From a phage, in the sequence record PZ386947.1: a stretch of DNA of 64,000 nt; one strand, written 5' to 3'. This document shows positions 8,890-21,281 of this stretch, piece after piece. Made by a program: the position numbers and the translations under genes. The notes below the pieces were generated by a model. The model saw only the letters and a list, made by a program, of their open reading frames with translations, ran no database searches and was not told the DNA's origin. How positions within the stretch are numbered: the first letter of the stretch is position 1; the number at the start of each line of letters is the position of its first letter.

Positions 8890-9064
8890 GGAGTTTAATT
8901 TCCTTAGCAACTGAACTAAATACAGCACGATCACAAATCATACGTTTATGTAACTTGAGTATAATATAGCAAACTTCAAAACTATTTACATGAGTAACAC
9001 GAACAGCATTACCATTAATGAGATAATACTGTCCCTTTTTAATTTCTTTATCAACCACAACCAT
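8882..9064 (-). CDS. hypothetical small protein (60 aa)
   Basis: ORF track; early promoter immediately upstream. Confidence 0.45.
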   Translation of the reverse strand: MVVVDKEIKKGQYYLINGNAVRVTHVNSFEVCYIILKLHKRMICDRAVFSSVAKEIKLHG

Positions 9065-9092
9065 ATCAATTCCTCAAAGGTAATTCATATGT

Positions 9093-9125
9093 TAATAATA
9101 CCACGGTTTGAACTTGTTGTAAACA
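9093..9125 (-). promoter_or_regulatory. T4-type early promoter (GTTTAC -35, 18 nt spacer, TATTAT -10)
   Basis: minus strand reads aaagttGTTTACaacaagttcaaaccgtggTATTATtaac. Confidence 0.55.
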
Positions 9126-9203
9126 ACTTTGTGAAAATTATTTTAGGGAATGATAAGAAAGGAACGATAGCTTAGAATGGTAATATACAGAATGTGAGAA
9201 AGA

Positions 9204-9220
9204 AAGGCCCAGAGGGCCCG
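9204..9220 (-). terminator. GC-rich hairpin followed by U-rich tract, downstream of nrdH
   Basis: plus sequence ggcccagagggcc; minus strand hairpin then tttctttc. Confidence 0.4.
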
Positions 9221-9222
9221 TC

Positions 9223-9531
9223 TTAATCTTCTATGATATCTCTATCATATCCAAGTGAAATGAGAGTTTCTTTGAAGTGTTTAATGTTCTTTTGTCTAGA
9301 ATCATTAATGAAAATGACTGGATAACGAATGTTAAGAGATGTGAATCCAGCGCGTTTAGCAAGAGATACAATCAGTGGACGATCATACTCAATCTTACCG
9401 TTATTTGTAAGAACTTTATAGAAAGTAAAAGGAGCATTGAGCTCCTTTAGAAGTTTTGTAACTGATTGACATCCAGGACAACGACCTACTTCATCTGGAA
9501 TTCCATAGACTTCAATCTTATTTTGTTTCAC
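9223..9531 (-). CDS. nrdH: glutaredoxin-like redoxin
   Basis: 102 aa; CPGC redox motif; sits next to nrdG/nrdD as in T4. Confidence 0.65.
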   Translation of the reverse strand: MKQNKIEVYGIPDEVGRCPGCQSVTKLLKELNAPFTFYKVLTNNGKIEYDRPLIVSLAKRAGFTSLNIRYPVIFINDSRQKNIKHFKETLISLGYDRDIIED

Positions 9532-9533
9532 AA

Positions 9534-9746
9534 CTATTCCTTACTAAGAGCAGCATTCAGCTTGTTAGTAATTTTATCCAGACGCTCATTGAACTCACTA
9601 GAAGATAAGCCTTTTTCTGGAGAAATTAAGCTAATCACGAAAAATACAACAATAAAAGGAATAAGGAAAATAGCTCCAACTGCCATAAACAGAAAGAATG
9701 TTACAGTTGTAAGAAAATCAGCTAAACCTTTACGAAATTTATACAT
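9534..9746 (-). CDS. small membrane protein
   Basis: 70 aa; single long hydrophobic segment. Confidence 0.5.
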   Translation of the reverse strand: MYKFRKGLADFLTTVTFFLFMAVGAIFLIPFIVVFFVISLISPEKGLSSSEFNERLDKITNKLNAALSKE

Positions 9747-9861
9747 ATTTTACCCTTAATTGATTAACCAAGCATTGATAAGCACTAAACTATACTGCGA
9801 ATAAAATTCTGGACCAAAATGAAAAATCATATCATTTATAGTATCCATAATGTAATTCAAT

Positions 9862-10332
9862 TTAATCATGTTTCCACACCCCATCGGTATTTGACCAAAG
9901 CCGCTGATTATCTGATCCTCTCCACAGCTTTTTGGTCGGAAGATTTTTCTCATACTTCCCATCAATAATAACATCAACATATTTAAGCATTTCTAGTTGT
10001 TTAATATCTTCAAACTTATATCCTGTCCACAACCAAATGCTTTTATTTGGATAAAGATTTTTTACTGTTTGAACAATGCAATGAATAACATCTCGATTAT
10101 CAGGATAGAGAGGGTCTCCTCCAGTTATAGTTAATCCTTCTATATAATCATTATTCAAACATTCAATTAATTGTTCTAGTGTTTCACCAGTAAATGGAAT
10201 ACCATTTCTAGCATTCCATGTTGATTTATTATAACACCCTTCGCATTTATGCAAACAACCTGTAACGAAAAGAACGGCCCTGCATCCAGGGCCGTTCACA
10301 AAATCGCAAGGATAAAATCTATCATAATTCAT
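9862..10332 (-). CDS. nrdG: anaerobic ribonucleotide reductase activating protein (radical SAM)
   Basis: 156 aa; CxxxCxxC-type cluster (GCLHKCEGCYN); directly downstream of nrdD. Confidence 0.9.
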   Translation of the reverse strand: MNYDRFYPCDFVNGPGCRAVLFVTGCLHKCEGCYNKSTWNARNGIPFTGETLEQLIECLNNDYIEGLTITGGDPLYPDNRDVIHCIVQTVKNLYPNKSIWLWTGYKFEDIKQLEMLKYVDVIIDGKYEKNLPTKKLWRGSDNQRLWSNTDGVWKHD

Positions 10333-12146
10333 TGGTGTTTAACCCTATGCATGATTTCTTTATTTTTACCGAGATTAAATCCGCGTTCGTTCGGATTTCC
10401 CAAATAACCACATGTTCTTCTTATTGTGTTCATCTTTTTAGGATCAGTTTCTCCACAAATAGAACAAACAAATCCGTTTTCAGTAGGAGTCATTTCATGG
10501 GTACTTCCACATGTAAAACATTTATCTACTGGCATATTAACACCAAAATAATCTAAATGTTGTGCAGCATAATCCCATACGGCCTCAAGACCCTTTAAGT
10601 TATTTTTCATATCAGGAAGTTCAACATAAGAAATGTGACCACCTGTCGCAATGAAATGATATGGCGCTTCACGAGAAATCTTTTCAAACGGAGTAATATT
10701 TTCTTCTACTGAAACGTGGAAACTGTTAGTGTACCAGCCTTTATCGGTAACATCTTTTACACTTCCATATTTTTCTGTATCAAGTTTACAGAAGCGATAA
10801 CAAAGGTTTTCAGCAGGAGTCGAATATAAACTAAAAGCAAATCCAGTTCTTTCAGTCCACTGTTTAAGATGAGCATTCATTTTAGTTAAAATTTCTTGTC
10901 CAATATCACGACCGACAAGAATATTCAATTCGTGAATACCAATGTATCCTAGGGACACTGAACTTCTACCGTTTTTAAATAACTCAATTATGTCGTCATC
11001 AGGTTTAAGACGAACCCCGAATGCACCTTCTTGGTAAAGAATAGGAGCAACAGTAGCTTTAACTCCTTTTAAGGAACTAATTCTACACATCAATGCTTCA
11101 AAACATAAATCCATTCGTTCATTGAACAATTCAACAAATTTCTGTTCATTGAATTGTGTTCCAATATAAGAATCTAACGCGATGCGAGGAAGATTCAATG
11201 TTACAACACCAAGATTATTACGTCCATCAAGAATTTCATTGCCAGTCGAATCTTTCCATACGCTCAAGAAACTACGGCATCCCATCGGAGAAACAGGAAC
11301 AGATGAACCAGTGATAGCTTTATTGTTCTTAGCCGAAATGATGTCAGGATACATTCTTTTGCTTGCGCACTCTAAAGCAAGCTGCTTAATATCATAGTTC
11401 GGGTCGTCTTTATAAAGATTAACACCTTCTTCAACGAACATAACAAGCTTAGGGAAAATAGGAGTTATCCCATCACGACCAAGACCTTTAATACGATTTT
11501 TCAGAATTGCTTTCTGAATCATTCGTTCAGTCCAGTCAGTTCCCGTACCAAATGTAATTGTTACAAAAGGCGTTTGTCCGTTTGAACTAAAGAGAGTATT
11601 TACTTCATATTCATAAGCTTGGAATGCATCGTATACGTCTTTTTCTGTTTTAGATTGAGCATAATTTAACGCATCAGCGATTTGCCATTTTTCTGCATCC
11701 TCAATATGTTTTGCATAGGTGCGTTTAACATAAGGAGAAAGTACTTTATCTACATTAGCAAAAGTCGTTCCGCCGTATTGATGGGAAGCAACCTGTGCAG
11801 TAATTTGTGCCATAATTGCAGTAGCAACACCGATTGATTTAGGAGTTTCAATCTGTGCATTACCAAGCTTAAATCCATTCTCAAGCATTCCTTTTAAATC
11901 TACTAAACAACAATTAGTAAATGGAAGAGCAGGGGAATAATCAATATCGTGGAAATGAATAATTCCGCTTTCATGCGCTTTCATAATAAAAGACGGGACC
12001 ATATTTTTGGCAATGTGTTTAGACACAATACCAGCCATAAGGTCCCGTTGAGTTGGAAAAACACGAGAATCTTTATTAGCATTCTCGTTTAAAAGGTCTT
12101 TATTAGTTTTATGAATCAATCCTTCAATTTCTTTTTCAATTGTCAT
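10329..12146 (-). CDS. nrdD: anaerobic ribonucleoside-triphosphate reductase, uninterrupted
   Basis: 605 aa; C-terminal glycyl radical motif RRTCGYLG and zinc ribbon CFTCG...CSICG; continuous ORF. Confidence 0.93.
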   Translation of the reverse strand: MTIEKEIEGLIHKTNKDLLNENANKDSRVFPTQRDLMAGIVSKHIAKNMVPSFIMKAHESGIIHFHDIDYSPALPFTNCCLVDLKGMLENGFKLGNAQIETPKSIGVATAIMAQITAQVASHQYGGTTFANVDKVLSPYVKRTYAKHIEDAEKWQIADALNYAQSKTEKDVYDAFQAYEYEVNTLFSSNGQTPFVTITFGTGTDWTERMIQKAILKNRIKGLGRDGITPIFPKLVMFVEEGVNLYKDDPNYDIKQLALECASKRMYPDIISAKNNKAITGSSVPVSPMGCRSFLSVWKDSTGNEILDGRNNLGVVTLNLPRIALDSYIGTQFNEQKFVELFNERMDLCFEALMCRISSLKGVKATVAPILYQEGAFGVRLKPDDDIIELFKNGRSSVSLGYIGIHELNILVGRDIGQEILTKMNAHLKQWTERTGFAFSLYSTPAENLCYRFCKLDTEKYGSVKDVTDKGWYTNSFHVSVEENITPFEKISREAPYHFIATGGHISYVELPDMKNNLKGLEAVWDYAAQHLDYFGVNMPVDKCFTCGSTHEMTPTENGFVCSICGETDPKKMNTIRRTCGYLGNPNERGFNLGKNKEIMHRVKHQ

Positions 12147-13266: not shown

Positions 13267-13587
13267 TTATAGCGTAATCCATTCTCGTACTGTCTGAGTT
13301 ACTACACGTTCATGGGGCTCGACTAGTTCAACAGTCGGAACTGCATAATACCAGTCAGAATGATAAGAACCTGACCGAGATTCATTTACCGCTACATGTA
13401 CATTATGTTTTGGACTAAAGTAAACAAACTGACGATATTGGCATTTACCATCTTGCACCCAGTCTTCTATTTCGATAGGTTTAAGATAGTCGGAAAAATC
13501 GAAATCATAGTTTTCCGAAAATGCATCATGGTCTTCAATGATTTCGCTCAGAACTGCATCAACATCTAATTTATTTTCAATAGTCAT
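13267..13587 (-). CDS. hypothetical protein (106 aa)
   Basis: ORF track. Confidence 0.5.
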   Translation of the reverse strand: MTIENKLDVDAVLSEIIEDHDAFSENYDFDFSDYLKPIEIEDWVQDGKCQYRQFVYFSPKHNVHVAVNESRSGSYHSDWYYAVPTVELVEPHERVVTQTVREWITL

Positions 13588-13597
13588 TTTTCACCAA

Positions 13598-13807
13598 TTA
13601 ATTTCGCAATTTATTAAGTTCTTCATAATCAATCCAGGATTCTAATCCTGATGGCAAATCACATTCAATTTCCCAAAGAAGTTCTTCAATTTTATGAAGA
13701 CGATCTAGTTCTTCAGCAGGAATAGTAACCATTGACGGAGCTCTTGCTACATTAATATCGTAAATCATATTTACACCAGTTTGACCATACAATCGCCGTA
13801 TTTCCAC
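13598..13807 (-). CDS. hypothetical protein (69 aa)
   Basis: ORF track. Confidence 0.45.
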   Translation of the reverse strand: MEIRRLYGQTGVNMIYDINVARAPSMVTIPAEELDRLHKIEELLWEIECDLPSGLESWIDYEELNKLRN

Positions 13808-13986
13808 TTAGAAATAGACTTTTCACCATTAGAATAATAAACTTCAAGTTTAGCACGATTATTTTTAATTTGAATAACCTTTGCTGTCATCAAAGTTCCA
13901 TACCCATAATAAACTGCAACTTCATCACCTACATATACAGCGCTTCCGCGGTAATCGTGAATATAGTCAGTTCCTTCGAGCATCAT
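13771..13986 (-). CDS. hypothetical protein (71 aa)
   Basis: ORF track. Confidence 0.45.
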   Translation of the reverse strand: MMLEGTDYIHDYRGSAVYVGDEVAVYYGYGTLMTAKVIQIKNNRAKLEVYYSNGEKSISKWKYGDCMVKLV

Positions 13987-14246
13987 TTAAAATATTCTCG
14001 CAGTTGGTCAAATCCACCAATATGACTTCCATCAGGAGCAAATACCTGAGGCATTGTCAAGCCGATTTGAGTATCACGACCTAGTTTAGTCAGAAGCTCA
14101 GCGATTTTCTCATCATCAAAAACACCTTTTTCCGGCATAATGTTGATAAATTCAAACGGCTGTTTCTTCACGGTCAAAAGACGTTTTGCATTATCGCAAT
14201 ACACACATTTATGAATGTTGCTATCATAACCATATACTTTAAACAT
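13983..14246 (-). CDS. nrdC: thioredoxin/glutaredoxin
   Basis: 87 aa; CVYC active site, MFKVYGYDSNIHKCVYCDNAKRLL...; length matches T4 NrdC. Confidence 0.88.
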   Translation of the reverse strand: MFKVYGYDSNIHKCVYCDNAKRLLTVKKQPFEFINIMPEKGVFDDEKIAELLTKLGRDTQIGLTMPQVFAPDGSHIGGFDQLREYFK

Positions 14247-14247
14247 A

Positions 14248-14490
14248 TTATTCCTTAATTCCTAGTACTTGTTTAAAAGTCTCGTCGTAATCAAGACTTT
14301 GGCCCGTTTGTTCTTTATGTTTGTATATAATATCACTTACTTCTGATAGCATATTTTTATATGAACGAGTTAAAGCAGATTTAAGCACGCTGTATCTATC
14401 AGGAAATTTACCATGTTCATTATAATAAGCTATTGCTAATTCATGGACTGCCTTTTCAGCAGCCTCCATATATTCTTTACGCTTGGTCAT
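14248..14490 (-). CDS. hypothetical protein (80 aa)
   Basis: ORF track. Confidence 0.5.
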
Positions 14491-14492
14491 TT

Positions 14493-14882
14493 TTAATCCA
14501 AAATATTATTAGGCATTGGTTGAACACTCACAAGTTCTTTAAAGAACTCAGTAGAGTCAGGCAATTTAACCATTTCCGGAGCATGCTTACTGAATTTATG
14601 TTTACATTGACGGCATTTATATTCAAGCTCTGGTTTACGCCAGTTAATCAATTGAACTTGTTCAGTACCGCATTCAGGGCAATTAGGAACGTTTTTAGAA
14701 GCTCTTTCACGTCGTTCAACCATAGCCATAATAGCATCCCATGCTGGAGGTTTAAAATCTAAATCGTCGCAGCCGTGAATCTTTCCACGCATTTCCATAT
14801 CATCTTCCTCACCAGCCATAATAATTTTAATTAGACTAGAATTACTTGAAGCTGCAATATCTTCTAATAAACGCTTTTTCAT
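14493..14882 (-). CDS. zinc-ribbon protein
   Basis: 129 aa; CPECG...CRQCK four-cysteine motif. Confidence 0.5.
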
Positions 14883-15805
14883 TTCAGTACCTCAATAGCA
14901 TCACGTAAACCATTTGCTTTGGCGGTTAAAGCCTTAAGAACTTTAGTATGCTCTTCAATTTGTTTTTCAACTTCAATCAAACGAGCATTGAGATATTCGC
15001 GTTCTTCTTTCATAGTATCATTTCCATGATTAGATTTTGGTGTAGGTTTAAATTCACTAGGGTCCTTTAATTTAATAACAAATTTAGTTTCAAACAGTGA
15101 AAGACCATAATTCGTATTATCATCAAAGGATTTGACTACATCCATATCAGATAATAACACGCGCAAATTATAAGCCAAAGAACTAATAGTTTCATTGTGT
15201 TTATTAGCTTCGCGTGGTTTCATATACGGAAGATTTTTATATATCTCATGCGGAGCGCAAACGATAATTGACAATTCAAATTGTCCATTCTGGGACGATG
15301 GAATGAATTTAGCCGTAACCCAGTCTTTTACATTCACATTAATAGTACGGTTATCACCATGACAAAACAGTCTACGAGAATGCTTAAAAAGCATATTCAC
15401 GTTATTATTGAATTCGTGTGAAAATTCACTAGCAAATTTTTCTTTACTATCTTTAGAAAACCATTCTTCTAAATAAGTTCTTTTCACATCGTTAATAATA
15501 TTAAATGTAACAACACTAGCATTTGATACATTAGTCTCAATGTAGCTTGGATACATAAATTTTTTAACATTATTAACAGCTATCACAGAAGATAGTAATC
15601 GGGAACGTTTGAACCACTCGAGCAAAGAACCAAGAGAATGTGAATACGCATTTTGTGTATCTTTACAAATATGGTTTTCCCATCCAATATAGTCTAAAAA
15701 ATCACGAAGAATATTATTGATTACTGCTCTGTGTCCTATCTGATAATCACGATGTTTAGTAATAAGACTGTCAAAATAATCAATATAATGTTTACGAGTT
15801 TTCAT
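14879..15805 (-). CDS. hypothetical protein with C-terminal coiled coil
   Basis: 308 aa; heptad-like C-terminus [33 protein letters not shown]. Confidence 0.55.
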   Translation of the reverse strand: MKTRKHYIDYFDSLITKHRDYQIGHRAVINNILRDFLDYIGWENHICKDTQNAYSHSLGSLLEWFKRSRLLSSVIAVNNVKKFMYPSYIETNVSNASVVTFNIINDVKRTYLEEWFSKDSKEKFASEFSHEFNNNVNMLFKHSRRLFCHGDNRTINVNVKDWVTAKFIPSSQNGQFELSIIVCAPHEIYKNLPYMKPREANKHNETISSLAYNLRVLLSDMDVVKSFDDNTNYGLSLFETKFVIKLKDPSEFKPTPKSNHGNDTMKEEREYLNARLIEVEKQIEEHTKVLKALTAKANGLRDAIEVLK

Positions 15806-15859
15806 GTTCTTCTCACTTGGTTAATGATTTATACTCCGAGCCATCCTTGGCTTTAAATT

Positions 15860-16858
15860 TTACTTAATTAACTGTAAAGCTTGTTCAAGACGATCCAAGC
15901 GATTGACAGATTCTTCCCAAATCCTTTTAGCCTGCTCATATTCTTTCTGCGCTTTATTAGAAATTTCTAGAACTTCTTTATAAGCTTTTTCTAATGCAAT
16001 AACTTCTGGACGAATTTCTACCGGTTCAGGTGAATCATCAAGACATTCCATTAGTTCCTCAAGGGTAGTTTCTTCTTTAGGAGTATTCACAATTTCATCA
16101 CATTTTTGTTGGTAAATTTCTTTACTAGTAGGTGAATAAGTACATTTCACTTCACGAAGACTAACTACAATTTTATATCCTTCCCAACCGCATATATTCT
16201 TAAAAGGATATGTATGAATATTTTCTACTGTTTCCATACAGCCCAAAACCGCCTTTAATTGATAAGTTATAGTGCTAGCAATTGAGAAAAATTTATTAAT
16301 ATTCTTTTGGTTAGCGTTTGGTGTAAAAAATCCATAATTCACAAAAATAGCTACTTTATTTTCATCAAGCTCATATTCTTTTACGATAATCATATCAGAA
16401 GCCAAAGGATGAATTTGACGATAATCGCCATAACATAATTTAGAAGCTGATTTTAGAATTTGTCCTTTGAAAAGTCTGAAATTACTAATCCAACGACGAG
16501 TAAAAATATTCTCAGGGGCTTCTTTATTAAGATGATAAGAATTAACATCACCGAACCAATTATATCCTACTACATCTTTAGTTCGTTTAATTTCTTTCCC
16601 AAATTTACTAAGAATATCTCTGTTGACTAAGTATGAAAGAAGACGAGACCCTTTAAAGGTTTTCTTAATGTCATCTTTATCTACACGGCTAGAAATTTCA
16701 CGAACTTCATGAATAAATTTGCCGGAAGAAACAATACTTGCATCAGTATTATTGAGCCATTGATTGATAATAGAAATCACACTATTCTTACTAGACATAG
16801 GTTTAACTTTATCATCAATAACGCTATTGAATGATTTGATATATTCGTTACGAGTCAT
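15860..16858 (-). CDS. hypothetical protein with C-terminal coiled coil
   Basis: ORF track 15860-16909 trimmed to ATG after GAGGAG (MTRNEYIKSF...); C-terminus LEISNKAQKEYEQAKRIWEESVNRLDRLEQALQLIK. Confidence 0.55.
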   Translation of the reverse strand: MTRNEYIKSFNSVIDDKVKPMSSKNSVISIINQWLNNTDASIVSSGKFIHEVREISSRVDKDDIKKTFKGSRLLSYLVNRDILSKFGKEIKRTKDVVGYNWFGDVNSYHLNKEAPENIFTRRWISNFRLFKGQILKSASKLCYGDYRQIHPLASDMIIVKEYELDENKVAIFVNYGFFTPNANQKNINKFFSIASTITYQLKAVLGCMETVENIHTYPFKNICGWEGYKIVVSLREVKCTYSPTSKEIYQQKCDEIVNTPKEETTLEELMECLDDSPEPVEIRPEVIALEKAYKEVLEISNKAQKEYEQAKRIWEESVNRLDRLEQALQLIK

Positions 16859-16884
16859 AATAATCTCCTCAGTAGAAAGTAAGA

Positions 16885-16917
16885 ACATTATACCACATCC
16901 TTGTGGCAAAGTAAACT
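16885..16917 (-). promoter_or_regulatory. T4-type early promoter (GTTTAC, 18 nt spacer, TATAAT)
   Basis: minus strand GTTTACtttgccacaaggatgtggTATAATgttc, then GAGGAG and ATG. Confidence 0.6.
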
Positions 16918-17935
16918 AGTTCAGTGCATTTAGTGCATTGTTCAGTTTAGAACGTTGCTTCGTGAGATTTTTGACTTTTTCTTGAGCTTTTTCTAGCATC
17001 TTTTCAGCTTCTAGCACTTCATTGGTCGCTTTAACGAGTTCATCATCTACTGCCTTGATAGACTTCTCAATCGCATCCGCGTGCCATTTTTCAACAGGTT
17101 TAAGACTCGGATTTTCAATAGGAAGAAAATTCACTTTATTGAATTTCCATGCATCTTTATTACCTGAACTATACATCCAAAATTTAGGATCGTTTGATGA
17201 GTAATTAGATGAATTTAAGTTATCTTGCACTTCTTGCTTTTTCTCTTGCGGGACTTCGTCCTTTCTCAAAAAATCGTATTTAAATGAAACGATCATATCA
17301 AGTTCATATGTTGTTGTATGTTCCCAATTTCGCTCAAAACGAGGTAAAATCTTAGAATGAACAGCGGCAACAACATCCATATACTTAAATGCTTCTGTCA
17401 ACTGCGATTTAAGGCATTCGCAAATTGAAAGAGAATTTTTTGTATTAGGTTTAAAGCTAATTCGTGCAGTTCTATTATTTTCTTTTAATGGTCTTACTTC
17501 CATCTGAAGAGTATAACCATCAAATTTCAGGTTCTTTAAGTTAATATCAGAACCTTTTAATCGACTAGCCGTCGACAAAATTTGCTTTAATTGTTTACGG
17601 AATAGAGCAATAAATCTCCATTCAATACGATAATGATTTGGATTGAAAAATCCAGATGATAAATCGACCTTACTCTGACCAACACCTTGAACAAACAGAG
17701 GATTTTTATAATCAATAGTTTTACAGAAATCGGTGAGCTGCTCACGAGCAGTCATTTGTGTAATATATCCCGCTTTACTAAAATGACGTAACCATTCACT
17801 GCTATTCATATACTTAAAGTGAATGGAACTATTAACTCTATCAGGGTCTAAATTATTTTGGCACAAAAATGTCATAACATCACGAGTATAGCTGGCATTA
17901 CGAACCATATCTTCAATTTGAGAACGAGTTTTCAT
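16916..17935 (-). CDS. hypothetical protein with C-terminal coiled coil
   Basis: 339 aa; C-terminus LVKATNEVLEAEKMLEKAQEKVKNLTKQRSKLNNALNALN. Confidence 0.55.
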   Translation of the reverse strand: MKTRSQIEDMVRNASYTRDVMTFLCQNNLDPDRVNSSIHFKYMNSSEWLRHFSKAGYITQMTAREQLTDFCKTIDYKNPLFVQGVGQSKVDLSSGFFNPNHYRIEWRFIALFRKQLKQILSTASRLKGSDINLKNLKFDGYTLQMEVRPLKENNRTARISFKPNTKNSLSICECLKSQLTEAFKYMDVVAAVHSKILPRFERNWEHTTTYELDMIVSFKYDFLRKDEVPQEKKQEVQDNLNSSNYSSNDPKFWMYSSGNKDAWKFNKVNFLPIENPSLKPVEKWHADAIEKSIKAVDDELVKATNEVLEAEKMLEKAQEKVKNLTKQRSKLNNALNALN

Positions 17936-17943
17936 AGTGTTCC

Positions 17944-18846
17944 TTAAGATTTAAGTAAATCAACAATTTTAATTAATTTTTCACGCTCAGATTTAGCTTT
18001 ACTACTCAATCCAGATAGTCTGAAAATTTCATCGTCATATTGTTGAATAGAAATATTCAGCTCTTCAATTTGCTTATTAAAATAATCAATTTGTTCAGAA
18101 TGTTTTTCGTTACTACGAACTGGTACAGGTTTTGTAGGCAATTTAGTTGAACTGGATTCATCCGGGCGATAAATTAAAATACAACTTGAACCAATAGGGC
18201 ATTTAGCACCAGATGAATATTCTAACGTTCCAGCTTCTTTTAAAACTTCAAAAGCTAAACAGAGATGATGCCCCATATTAACATAATCTGTAGAGCGAGC
18301 TCTGATATAATAATCATCGCCGCGAATACTAAATTTAAAGCATTTAAGGTCTTCTGTATTATTGGTCTTAAAAATCATTTGTTTATCTAGACCTTTAGCT
18401 AATCGAGCGCCTAATGCTAATAATCGTCGTTGATTTTCCCACAAATCCGCAATCATTTGATCGAATGATAATTTCGGCATTAGTCGACCATAAAGGTCAT
18501 ATCCTTTATTATAATTGCGAAGGATTTCACTCGCATTAATACGAGACAACGCTCCAATTTTATTAAGGGCTTTCATAATGCGATTAGATAAACCCATTCC
18601 AGACCCGTTTGTTCGTTGTAAATGTTTATCTAATCCAAACCCAATATCAACTTTAAATTTATCTAAAATTTCAGCATGAACATCTCTGTCAATAACATTC
18701 AAATCCAAAGTTGGGTTAAATCTATGAAAAAATTTATCTGGCTCTCCACGACGAAGTACAGTCCATTCATTTAATTTTTTATTAACTAAAGATTTAATTA
18801 CTGCATTGACATTATTAATTACTACTGACATATTTTTCTCACTCAA
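17944..18846 (-). CDS. hypothetical protein with C-terminal coiled coil
   Basis: 300 aa; C-terminus IDYFNKQIEELNISIQQYDDEIFRLSGLSSKAKSEREKLIKIVDLLKS. Confidence 0.55.
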   Translation of the reverse strand: MSEKNMSVVINNVNAVIKSLVNKKLNEWTVLRRGEPDKFFHRFNPTLDLNVIDRDVHAEILDKFKVDIGFGLDKHLQRTNGSGMGLSNRIMKALNKIGALSRINASEILRNYNKGYDLYGRLMPKLSFDQMIADLWENQRRLLALGARLAKGLDKQMIFKTNNTEDLKCFKFSIRGDDYYIRARSTDYVNMGHHLCLAFEVLKEAGTLEYSSGAKCPIGSSCILIYRPDESSSTKLPTKPVPVRSNEKHSEQIDYFNKQIEELNISIQQYDDEIFRLSGLSSKAKSEREKLIKIVDLLKS

Positions 18847-19247
18847 TTTTCAATTTTACTAAATACACAGAATATGATGGAAAAGACTATATAAGCACAA
18901 CACACAGATTGAACTAATACCATTCCAAAGAACCAAACAATATTATCAAACAATGTCTGTTTTACGTCGAAAGGACGTAAACTTACAGTAATATTATCGC
19001 CTTTTTCTATTGATGAATACATCTCTGGTGAAATATATTCGCTAAATCTATAACCGTCATTGAGTTCATATACGGCAATAAACGATAAACTAGACCCCTT
19101 TCCTTGAGTTCCTGTAAGGGTATTAACTACAGTAACATCATAATCTTTATAATGCATATAATCATTAATTGCGTAATAACCATATGCAACTACTACACAT
19201 AAACAACATATCAATAAATTCAATCTTTTAATTATCAACTGTTTCAT
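18843..19247 (-). CDS. membrane protein (two hydrophobic segments)
   Basis: 134 aa; N- and C-terminal hydrophobic stretches. Confidence 0.5.
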   Translation of the reverse strand: MKQLIIKRLNLLICCLCVVVAYGYYAINDYMHYKDYDVTVVNTLTGTQGKGSSLSFIAVYELNDGYRFSEYISPEMYSSIEKGDNITVSLRPFDVKQTLFDNIVWFFGMVLVQSVCCAYIVFSIIFCVFSKIEN

Positions 19248-19302
19248 AATAATCTCAATTAAAAGGGCTTAGAACCATTATACCATCCTTGGTATAAAGC
19301 GG

Positions 19303-19830
19303 TTATGCGAGTACCGTCTTTAACCGTTCTTCAAACTTCCGAAGAGTATTCTGGCGTTCAGCTCTTTGCTTTTTGTAAGTTTCAATACGCTCTGAAATGA
19401 GAGTGTATCGTTCATTTACTGATTCTTTCATAAAATCAGGAATTTCACGAGAAGCTTTAATCTCATCAAATTTATCAATAACAGCTTGCTCTTCAGCAAT
19501 TAAGTTATCATACATCAAAATATCTTTCTTGATGAACTCAATATCTTCTTGAGTTACACGAGATAACTTAGATGCTTTATCCTTTTTGTACTGTTCGTTA
19601 GTATCACGAGACCAGTGTAATGTACGATTTTTATTCGTATTCTTGTAAATTTCTACAATACCAATCTCATCAATAATAACGATCCAATTCCAACGAGATT
19701 TGTAAATTTGTCCTCCGTCAACCGTGATTTCACCTCCGATTGAGATGTCATTAAAGAACTTGCTTTGTGCTTCTGATTTAAATTTACCATCGTTGTAATT
19801 TACCAGGTTGAAAATATCTTTAGCGTTCAT
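19303..19830 (-). CDS. hypothetical protein with C-terminal coiled coil
   Basis: ORF track 19303-19890 trimmed to MNAKDIF...; the upstream 20 codons are a translated promoter. Confidence 0.5.
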   Translation of the reverse strand: MNAKDIFNLVNYNDGKFKSEAQSKFFNDISIGGEITVDGGQIYKSRWNWIVIIDEIGIVEIYKNTNKNRTLHWSRDTNEQYKKDKASKLSRVTQEDIEFIKKDILMYDNLIAEEQAVIDKFDEIKASREIPDFMKESVNERYTLISERIETYKKQRAERQNTLRKFEERLKTVLA

Positions 19831-19856
19831 TTTGTGTTCCTCCGTAGTTGATAGTT

Positions 19857-19890
19857 GTATAGTACCACAGAGGAACGGTCTTGTAAACAA
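19857..19890 (-). promoter_or_regulatory. T4-type early promoter (GTTTAC, 18 nt spacer, TGgTACTAT)
   Basis: minus strand GTTTACaagaccgttcctctgtggTACTATacaactatcaac. Confidence 0.6.
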
Positions 19891-20294: not shown

Positions 20295-21281
20295 TTATTT
20301 CAGAAGAGTAACCTCAGCGATTTCTTCCCAACCGTTTTTGTCGGTCATAATAAAGTCAGCAAGATAAAGAGCAGTACGCAGTGAAACATTGCGTAAACGA
20401 TTAACATTGACTTTCATCCATGATAATGCTTTATAAGTTTCTTCATCAGAAAGACCGCGCTTTTGCATCATGTCAGTTGAAAGAATAACATCTTCAACCC
20501 TGACCATAATTTCTTCATTAGTGTGAACACCCAAATCTAAATAAACTGAGCGGGACACTAATGCTTGTAAATGTGGAGCAAGTTTAGTACCACGGTCTAA
20601 TTCGCGGTCAATATCAACGTTTGTGATAAAAACAATCGTTCCTTTAAATTCAAACTCACGCTCAATGCCTTTTTCTTCTAAGTAAGAAGATGCAGTGCTC
20701 CAGCAGACTTTACGGGTCTCTCCGGTGTCCAGAGCAGCTTTCAGAAGATTAAGAATGTCCATATCAGAGAAAACATCCACATCATCAATCAAAAGGACAG
20801 AATTCTCTTCACGATTATTCCAAAGCTGTTCATAAAGACCGATACCAGAGATTTTACCATTAATGCTTTTATACTCAATGTATCCAATATCATTTGCTTT
20901 ATTTAAAGCTTTATCTAAAGAATACGTTTTACCAATACCTGCTGCTCCCGAGATAATTAATGAACGAATGTTTCCGTTAATAATACCATTCGTCATCATT
21001 CCCATAACATTAAATCTTTTATTAATGCGGGTTTTCATATCTTCATACGATTCTTTAACTTCTTCAACTTTTACACCATCATATGAAATGTCTGATTTGT
21101 AAACCCAAACACCGCGACGTTTACCGTCAATTTCAACAAAAACTTTACCATCTCCTTGTGCATCTACCGGAGCATTATCTGGGAACCATTCGCCTAAGAG
21201 CTCAAAAGTTCCAGAGATTTCTTTACCGAAGTAGATACCCTTATTGATAGTTACAGTTTTCATTTTGTTCTCCAATTTCAC
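20295..21281 (-). CDS. P-loop ATPase (AAA-like)
   Basis: 328 aa; Walker A GAAGIGKTY, Walker B VLLIDDVD. Confidence 0.6.
   Translation of the reverse strand: MKLENKMKTVTINKGIYFGKEISGTFELLGEWFPDNAPVDAQGDGKVFVEIDGKRRGVWVYKSDISYDGVKVEEVKESYEDMKTRINKRFNVMGMMTNGIINGNIRSLIISGAAGIGKTYSLDKALNKANDIGYIEYKSINGKISGIGLYEQLWNNREENSVLLIDDVDVFSDMDILNLLKAALDTGETRKVCWSTASSYLEEKGIEREFEFKGTIVFITNVDIDRELDRGTKLAPHLQALVSRSVYLDLGVHTNEEIMVRVEDVILSTDMMQKRGLSDEETYKALSWMKVNVNRLRNVSLRTALYLADFIMTDKNGWEEIAEVTLLK

Follow-up and report, generated by a model that had tools for sequence, protein, structure and literature searches.

Two phage proteins reported to act against bacterial immunity are the closest described counterparts of the genes treated here. 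One is T4 NrdC.5, an anti-Dsr1 factor: an evolved T4 clone with deletions fails on ECOR17 owing to dsr1, and plasmid-borne T4 nrdC.5 restores infection by the T4 deletion clone on dsr1 cells (Srikant et al., eLife 2022, PMC9391042). In that paper, nrdC.5 is termed an early gene and is presented without a mechanism, a domain analysis or a family context, and neither its kinship with nrdC.3, nrdC.4 and nrdC.6 nor its coiled-coil tail is discussed. The other is Bas37_0203, reported as an inhibitor of Druantia type III (HIDEN-SEQ preprint, bioRxiv 10.1101/2025.11.20.689424); the accessible passages of the preprint give it no known domain or mechanism and do not use the name nrdC.8. Both have orthologues in a run of minus-strand genes within a 64,000-nucleotide stretch of phage DNA (sequence record PZ386947.1, hereafter the window), which is 100% identical to Shigella phage CM8 (Tequatrovirus, T4-type) and has more than 96% identity with a large number of T4-type phages. 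Window nrdC.5 (16916-17935) is the orthologue of the T4 gene, at 92% identity over the full length and at the same locus. Bas37 is phage KarlGJung (MZ501089), in which bas37_0203 is the syntenic 528-bp gene; its product is identical to that of window nrdC.8 at 174 of 175 residues, which identifies Bas37_0203, as judged by sequence, as the nrdC.8 orthologue. Each of the five open reading frames (ORFs) considered here belongs to one of the Pfam families PF26897, PF23882, PF26899 and PF26901 and to one of PHROGs 1435, 2351, 2257 and 2274, all of unknown function, and the databases hold nrdC.3/nrdC.4, nrdC.5 and nrdC.6 as three families. The evidence gathered here would merge these three into one proposed superfamily: nrdC.3 to nrdC.6 are very probably tandem, strongly diverged paralogues of a single Straboviridae-specific family with a shared architecture. 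The genes of the run, named by comparison with annotated RB51 and T4 records, are the following (aa, amino acids):

14879-15805, minus strand: nrdC.3, 308 aa, judged a clear paralogue of nrdC.4; phrog_1435
15860-16858, minus strand: nrdC.4, 332 aa; phrog_1435; homologues carry PF26897 (Phage_T4_Y04OP)
16916-17935, minus strand: nrdC.5, 339 aa; Pfam DUF7235 (PF23882)
17944-18831, minus strand: nrdC.6, 295 aa from ATG 18831; a TTG start at 18846 would yield 300 aa
18843-19247, minus strand: nrdC.7, 134 aa, predicted membrane protein outside the family, without a heptad tail
19303-19830, minus strand: nrdC.8, 175 aa, separate family; phrog_2274

An earlier, sequence-only reading of the window had described nrdC.3, nrdC.4, nrdC.5, nrdC.6 and nrdC.8 as five consecutive proteins that join unrelated N-terminal domains to coiled-coil-like C-termini. 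All five ORFs are present on the minus strand at the coordinates it named; the run is not strictly consecutive, since nrdC.7 separates nrdC.6 from nrdC.8. The true start of nrdC.6 is probably ATG 18831 and not TTG 18846, because its aligned orthologues begin with MSVVINN or MSQAIN. The annotated N-terminus of one nrdC.6 homologue (P0120 of Shigella phage Sf25, 378 aa) is about 80 residues longer than the others, which may reflect a wrongly called start codon or else the nrdC.7 region, by fusion with it or by read-through from it.

The relationship between nrdC.3 and nrdC.4 is the most direct of those within the family. Both match phrog_1435 over their full length (E 1.3e-100 and 1.3e-164, respectively), and they align to one another by hhalign with 98% probability (E 2e-13) when the last 60 residues are removed. 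Pairwise BLASTP gives 25% identity over 167 aa (E 7.6e-4), and beyond this pair the comparison among window proteins returned only noise. In addition, nrdC.3 retrieves Dhakavirus nrdC.4 orthologues by phmmer (4e-9), and PF26897, which belongs to a newer Pfam release, spans nrdC.3 and nrdC.4, being precomputed on all nrdC.4 homologues and on a chimera that contains nrdC.3 (P0118). By these profile and pairwise matches the two are clear paralogues, and nrdC.3 looks like a later duplicate of nrdC.4, because Gaprivervirus and Dhakavirus loci keep nrdC.4 without nrdC.3.

The chimera P0118, found on metagenomic and phage contigs of up to 167 kb and corresponding to window positions 14879-17500, is a natural one in which residues 145-271 of nrdC.5 are joined to residues 134-308 of nrdC.3, with the junction at the shared KFNKVN/FNNNVNMLFKH and the consequent deletion of nrdC.4. 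Its arrangement suggests recombination between paralogues at short homology.

For nrdC.5, DUF7235 covers residues 1-339 at 419 bits, where the Pfam gathering cut-off is 30 (E 1.6e-125). Its collinear hhalign matches reach 77% probability with nrdC.4 (E 2e-5) and 62% with nrdC.3 (E 8e-5), and a merged nrdC.3 and nrdC.4 profile again gives 77% (E 2e-5) over residues 67-222 and 51-200, with 134 collinear core columns. As this alignment covers the globular core only, the match is not driven by the coiled coil; a comparison restricted to the N-terminal parts is weak (32%, E 5e-4). The kinship of nrdC.5 with nrdC.3 and nrdC.4 over the globular core is thus suggestive, not conclusive.

The fourth protein, nrdC.6, was linked through predicted structure. 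PF26899 (Phage_T4_Y05B) is carried by all 105 nrdC.6 homologues, and window nrdC.6 is assigned to it indirectly, via these homologues; at the locus L011, the PF26899 gene is 55% identical to window nrdC.6 and a PF26901 (Phage_T4_Y05D) gene is 82% identical to nrdC.8. No similarity of nrdC.6 to nrdC.3, nrdC.4 or nrdC.5 was detected between sequence profiles by hhalign. AlphaFold2 models of nrdC.4 and nrdC.6, both built on alignments, show the same order of elements, namely an N-terminal helical bundle, a helix pair, a hairpin, a long helix, a second hairpin, a linker and a terminal helix; in nrdC.4, these form a helical N-domain (1-85) and an alpha/beta domain (about 88-235), followed by the linker and the C-terminal helix. 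When both models were searched against BFVD with Foldseek, the nrdC.4 model matched nrdC.6 of phage JS10 (E 6.5e-5, probability 1.00) and nrdC.3 of phage fPS-65 (E 1.4e-7). Seven full-length targets of 280-375 aa were shared by the two models, from Pectobacterium phage PM2, Enterobacter phage IME523, Acinetobacter phages fHyAci03, Acj9 and Acj61, Yersinia phage fHe-Yen9-01 and Serratia phage PS2, and six of the seven have E-values between 5e-8 and 1.5e-4 with both models, the exception being PS2 (E 9.0e-2 with the nrdC.6 model). The predicted structures therefore place nrdC.6 in one fold family with nrdC.4.

The statement that the N-terminal domains share no obvious similarity is accordingly not confirmed for nrdC.3 to nrdC.6, given the phrog_1435 assignments, the hhalign results, the core profile and the fold matches. 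Their shared build would consist of a helical N-domain, an alpha/beta domain, a short proline-rich linker and an amphipathic C-terminal heptad helix of 45-52 residues. Word-indexed homologue searches remained confined to Tevenvirinae and supplied no bridge between the families, and Pfam, NCBIfam and PDB sequence searches found no functional domain in any of the five proteins. The N-terminal bundle resembles generic small helical domains, for example acyl carrier proteins, a resemblance to be read as a lead and not as membership.

The fifth protein, nrdC.8, stands apart. An exhaustive HMMER search collected 37 representative relatives at E<=1e-3, mostly of 150-240 aa, which have in common an N-domain of some 95 residues, marked by the motif NNGxFKSEKQ...W.R; the half behind it is helical and variable. 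A 34-sequence nrdC.8 alignment has no profile link to the nrdC.3 to nrdC.6 families, the hhalign probability being at most 1.7%, and the distant relatives of nrdC.8 yielded no meaningful match to Pfam. The idea that nrdC.8 is a truncated paralogue of nrdC.3 to nrdC.6 was ruled out by this value, by its different size and by its own N-terminal motif. Thus, nrdC.8 is smaller than the other four and unrelated to them; its helical tail, comparable to theirs, is a parallel feature and not demonstrably a shared module.

The C-terminal segments were evaluated with an ad hoc, uncalibrated heptad score that rewards hydrophobic residues at positions a and d and polar or charged residues elsewhere and penalises proline and glycine. 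When the best 28-mer within the last 50 residues was ranked for the 91 non-overlapping gene-like ORFs of the window, the five C-termini took ranks 1-5 (7.95, 7.25, 6.65, 6.45 and 5.15), followed by a sixth ORF at 4.9, and in all five proteins the best 28-mer of the entire sequence is the C-terminal one. One continuous register over the last 42-52 residues was additionally compared with 5000 composition-preserving shuffles, of which at most 0.7% reached the observed value, so that the pattern is more than richness in E, K, L and A. The hydrophobic periodicity peaks at 3.5 residues in nrdC.3 to nrdC.6 and is ambiguous in nrdC.8 (3.5 versus 3.6). The segments, with the z-scores of the shuffle test, are as follows:

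14882-15019, minus strand: nrdC.3 heptad helix, last 46 aa; z 4.9
15863-16009, minus strand: nrdC.4 heptad helix, last 49 aa; z 3.1; the most conserved part of the family
16919-17074, minus strand: nrdC.5 heptad helix, last 52 aa; z 6.4
17947-18099, minus strand: nrdC.6 heptad helix, last 51 aa; z 4.5; holds the invariant patch DDEIFRL
19306-19431, minus strand: nrdC.8 heptad helix, last 42 aa; z 4.5; ambiguous periodicity of 3.5/3.6

In the models, the tail forms one unbroken terminal helix of 48-50 residues, at positions 284-331 of nrdC.4 (mean predicted local distance difference test, pLDDT, 82.8) and at residues 250-299 of nrdC.6 (pLDDT 75.8), preceded in both by a low-confidence, proline-rich linker. 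The features expected of a coiled coil, unbroken heptads with hydrophobic a and d positions over at least four heptads in a predicted helix, were thus found with the ad hoc score and the models, and the proposal of coiled-coil-like C-termini in all five proteins held up. In none of the orthologous families is the tail less conserved than most of the head. Mean pairwise identity of the tail is 75% in nrdC.4, versus 51-62% in the head regions; 87% in nrdC.3, versus 63% in an alpha/beta domain that occurs in two allelic forms; 54% in nrdC.5, versus 47% in the head; and 78.5% in nrdC.8, versus 68-70.5%. In nrdC.6, the tail reaches 70% and the head regions 61-80%, only the central segment 86-150 exceeding the tail.

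The family extends well beyond Tequatrovirus. Among Tequatrovirus records, the identity of nrdC.4 and nrdC.5 is mostly 90-95%, and 403 of 746 records have an nrdC.8 of at least 99% identity. In Gaprivervirus and Dhakavirus, the order nrdC.8, nrdC.6, small ORF, nrdC.5, nrdC.4, nrdC.2 is found, and nrdC.3 and nrdC.7 are absent at the examined loci (VR26, dhabil and IME281). A search of IMG/VR recovered only five related loci with nrdC.5, all near-identical, and tblastn of nrdC.4 and nrdC.8 in the phage collection stopped short of the distant T4-like phages, which were reached by the fold search alone; by structure only, the nrdC.3 to nrdC.6 superfamily reaches T4-like phages of Acinetobacter, Klebsiella, Erwinia, Serratia and Pectobacterium. 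In Acinetobacter phage Acj61 (Twarogvirinae), the adjacent genes p120 (330 aa) and p121 (304 aa) lie between nrdC and nrdC.10, both products are among the BFVD matches, and their C-terminal heptad scores are 8.4 and 7.75, respectively. Profile searches of the two against all four families were not significant, and for this reason their membership is argued from structure, synteny and architecture. From this pair, which occupies the nrdC locus without sequence similarity, it is concluded that the family, as far as predicted structures show, is old within Straboviridae and very fast-diverging, and stays in tandem at a constant locus with its tail retained. The same Acj61 genome holds another adjacent pair of 372 aa each, p076 and p077 (9028-11322), annotated as mutual copies and located beside gene 40, so that in these genomes accessory genes have been duplicated in tandem more than once.

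Functional evidence comes from published work on two of the five genes. The supposition that the run encodes host-takeover or anti-defence factors is supported, for these two, by the published activities of nrdC.5 (against Dsr1) and of the nrdC.8 orthologue (against Druantia III). According to the supplementary table of the HIDEN-SEQ preprint, insertions in bas37_0203 are depleted, with a log2 fold change of -5.80 and an adjusted p of 0, in one clinical-isolate comparison (10.1101/2025.11.20.689424). In the laboratory host, T4 nrdC.3, nrdC.4 and nrdC.5 and genes bas37_0198-0203 of Bas37 were scored as non-essential. The neighbouring nrdC.1 is a reported anti-defence factor against Septu, and the neighbouring gp49.2 one against OLD (PMC13096335). 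A comparable setting to that of nrdC.5 is provided by DSAD1, described in three papers (PMC10981675, PMC11087589, PMC10973363) as a phage-encoded antagonist of a SIR2-type, NAD+-depleting defence protein that senses a virion protein. Its target is DSR2 and not Dsr1, and its source is Bacillus phages, so that the likeness is an analogy only. Literature searches under the UniProt-style names and DUF7235 found nothing.

Building on the gene identities, paralogy, architecture and heptad pattern seen at this locus, the reading that explains the run best, to which a probability of roughly 0.55 is given, is one of counter-defence proteins encoded in tandem, early and non-essential, with a variable head and an oligomerising tail. 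Most likely, nrdC.3 to nrdC.6 and nrdC.8 would be produced early in infection, and the globular head of each, fast-evolving and present in allelic forms, would bind one host immunity protein and provide specificity. Copies of the conserved C-terminal helix would come together in a coiled coil, yielding a dimeric or trimeric inhibitor able to bind oligomeric defence proteins avidly. A family-wide anti-defence role is reasonably probable, and nrdC.3, nrdC.4 and nrdC.6 would then be anti-defence proteins with other targets. Oligomerisation through the tails is likewise what we infer from their pattern, and the mechanism by which the tail would confer valency is put forward as tentative, at somewhat below even odds.

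Several observations weigh against this array of counter-defence oligomers. No experimental link connects nrdC.3, nrdC.4 or nrdC.6 with any defence system, and in the preprint data insertions in bas37_0198-0202, which correspond to nrdC.3 to nrdC.7, were neutral in the same clinical-isolate comparison (-0.21 to +0.68; 10.1101/2025.11.20.689424); the Druantia III result itself stems from this preprint. The link of nrdC.5 to nrdC.3 and nrdC.4 is a profile comparison in the grey zone (77% probability), and the Foldseek template-modelling scores between families are low (0.38-0.50) and the root-mean-square deviations high, probably because the long helix is freely oriented. Moreover, the heptad score is an uncalibrated one, and the AlphaFold2 models are monomers in which the pLDDT of the tail reaches only about 70-83. 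That the tail is highly conserved, at non-core positions too, may point to a specific partner rather than to plain self-association.

This last observation is what favours a different use of the tail, as the working or docking element of the protein, which would insert into the target, bind a common host factor or pack on the head. Conservation of the tail equals or exceeds that of most of the head and reaches beyond the a/d core: WEESTNRLDRLEQALELLK hardly varies among nrdC.4 orthologues with an overall identity of 40%, DDEIFRL is invariant in nrdC.6, and each paralogue keeps its own distinct tail sequence. One continuous register over six to seven heptads, with a periodicity of 3.5 and not 3.6, is however a hallmark of a coiled coil, a low-confidence linker parts the tail from the head in both models, and no partner is known, which leaves the docking element an unlikely explanation. 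That the five tails differ and are each conserved would also suit one heteromeric helical bundle, making the gene run a single multi-headed complex, and nrdC.4, nrdC.5, nrdC.6 and nrdC.8 do co-occur in a kept order in Tequatrovirus, Gaprivervirus, Dhakavirus and one metagenomic relative. An obligate complex of this kind is nevertheless very unlikely, because insertions in the neighbours are neutral in the comparison where those in bas37_0203 (nrdC.8) are depleted at a log2 fold change of -5.8, plasmid-borne nrdC.5 rescues the T4 deletion clone on dsr1 by itself (PMC9391042), and gene content varies between genera, with nrdC.3 missing from other genera and Acj61 holding just two family members and no clear nrdC.8. 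The sequence-only reading had itself proposed a shared C-terminal module on variable heads, taken here as a mobile module shuffled onto unrelated heads, for which the unrelated head and similar tail of nrdC.8 can be cited, together with a similar hydrophobic-x-x-L/I-K/L ending in all five tails. Four of the heads are very probably homologous, however, and tail-only profile comparisons between families are not significant, reaching at best 33% (E 4.5e-4) and leaving nrdC.8 without similarity, its best matches to the other tails having E-values of 0.03-0.3; a heptad helix can, in addition, arise convergently. On these grounds the shuffled-module model fails and is regarded as highly improbable, and the tail is common to nrdC.3 to nrdC.6 because the whole proteins are paralogues.

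Two further explanations start from the alpha/beta domain of nrdC.4, whose best PDB matches are tail-terminator proteins, with weak similarity. Taken at face value, this would make the proteins virion or assembly components, the least probable of all the explanations weighed here. The genes lie in an early, leftward-transcribed accessory region, nrdC.5 is early (PMC9391042), and T4 nrdC.3, nrdC.4 and nrdC.5 as well as bas37_0198-0203 were scored as non-essential, so that a structural role is unlikely. By comparison with tail terminators of the lambda gpU fold, nrdC.4 is not a member: membership would call for a strong fold match, a late structural gene and presence in the virion, and nrdC.4, with its weak similarity, is multi-domain, with an extra helical domain and a coiled-coil tail, and is the product of an early, non-essential gene. 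The same resemblance could alternatively mean that the heads of nrdC.3 to nrdC.6 are decoys that mimic a conserved virion-protein fold, each tuned to a different sensor. In that case, early coiled-coil oligomers would occupy repeat-type pattern-recognition sensors before the real structural proteins appear, and the targeted sensors would include Dsr1, whose tetratricopeptide-repeat (TPR) sensor reportedly recognises the major capsid protein (2026 preprint, PMC12803255), and related Avs receptors. Such mimicry is considered improbable.

Around the run, the region directly downstream of the cluster (13267-14490, minus strand) comprises 49.2, nrdC and nrdC.1 and includes the orthologues of gp49.2 and nrdC.1 as well as pin, which is annotated as an inhibitor of the host Lon protease. 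The adjoining nrdC.2 (14493-14882, minus strand) encodes 129 aa with zinc-ribbon-like CxxC pairs (Zn_ribbon_8, E 6.6e-6, under the cut-off), and its size varies, T4 having a version of 104 aa and the VR26, dhabil and IME281 records one of 73 aa. On the other side, nrdC.10 (20295-21281, minus strand; 328 aa) is conserved out to Acinetobacter phage Acj61 and has weak P-loop matches of the AAA and STAND types (AAA_14, nSTAND3 and AAA_22; E 6e-5 to 5e-4), all under the cut-offs. Gaps of 54-60 nt lie upstream of nrdC.3 (15806-15859), nrdC.4 (16859-16915), nrdC.7 (19248-19302) and nrdC.8 (19831-19890), and sigma-70-like sites with an extended -10 occur at 16915-16887 upstream of nrdC.4 and at 19887-19859 upstream of nrdC.8; a plausible early-promoter-like site is also present in the gap upstream of nrdC.10. 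The two sites upstream of nrdC.4 and nrdC.8 would be consistent with separate early promoters, and the promoter and terminator scan as a whole showed no enrichment over shuffles (35 sites versus 32 expected). The whole nrdC.1-nrdC.11 run carries the label 'thioredoxin' in many records; these labels and the annotation of the nrdC.5 and nrdC.8 orthologues in phage T6 (NC_054907.1 / AP018814.1) look like propagated mis-annotation and are not used as evidence.

The genes, their DUF families and two of their functions were already known, and no new kind of system is revealed. What seems unrecorded in the sources searched is the single superfamily formed by nrdC.3/nrdC.4, nrdC.5 and nrdC.6, together with its structural reach to distant T4-like phages, and likewise the identity of Bas37_0203 with nrdC.8. 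The stretch from pin to nrdC.11 of T-even phages is emerging as an anti-defence island whose annotated or reported members are Pin (Lon), gp49.2 (OLD), nrdC.1 (Septu), nrdC.5 (Dsr1) and nrdC.8 (Druantia III). Here, nrdC.5 appears as one of four tandem paralogues with a head, a linker and a coiled coil, a build that is structurally conserved across Straboviridae of very different hosts. Since nrdC.5 appears to share this common build with nrdC.3, nrdC.4 and nrdC.6, these three genes, like their relatives elsewhere among T4-like phages, are now specific candidates for further defence inhibitors, for which the locus offers a design hypothesis: the variable head would provide specificity and the conserved tail valency.

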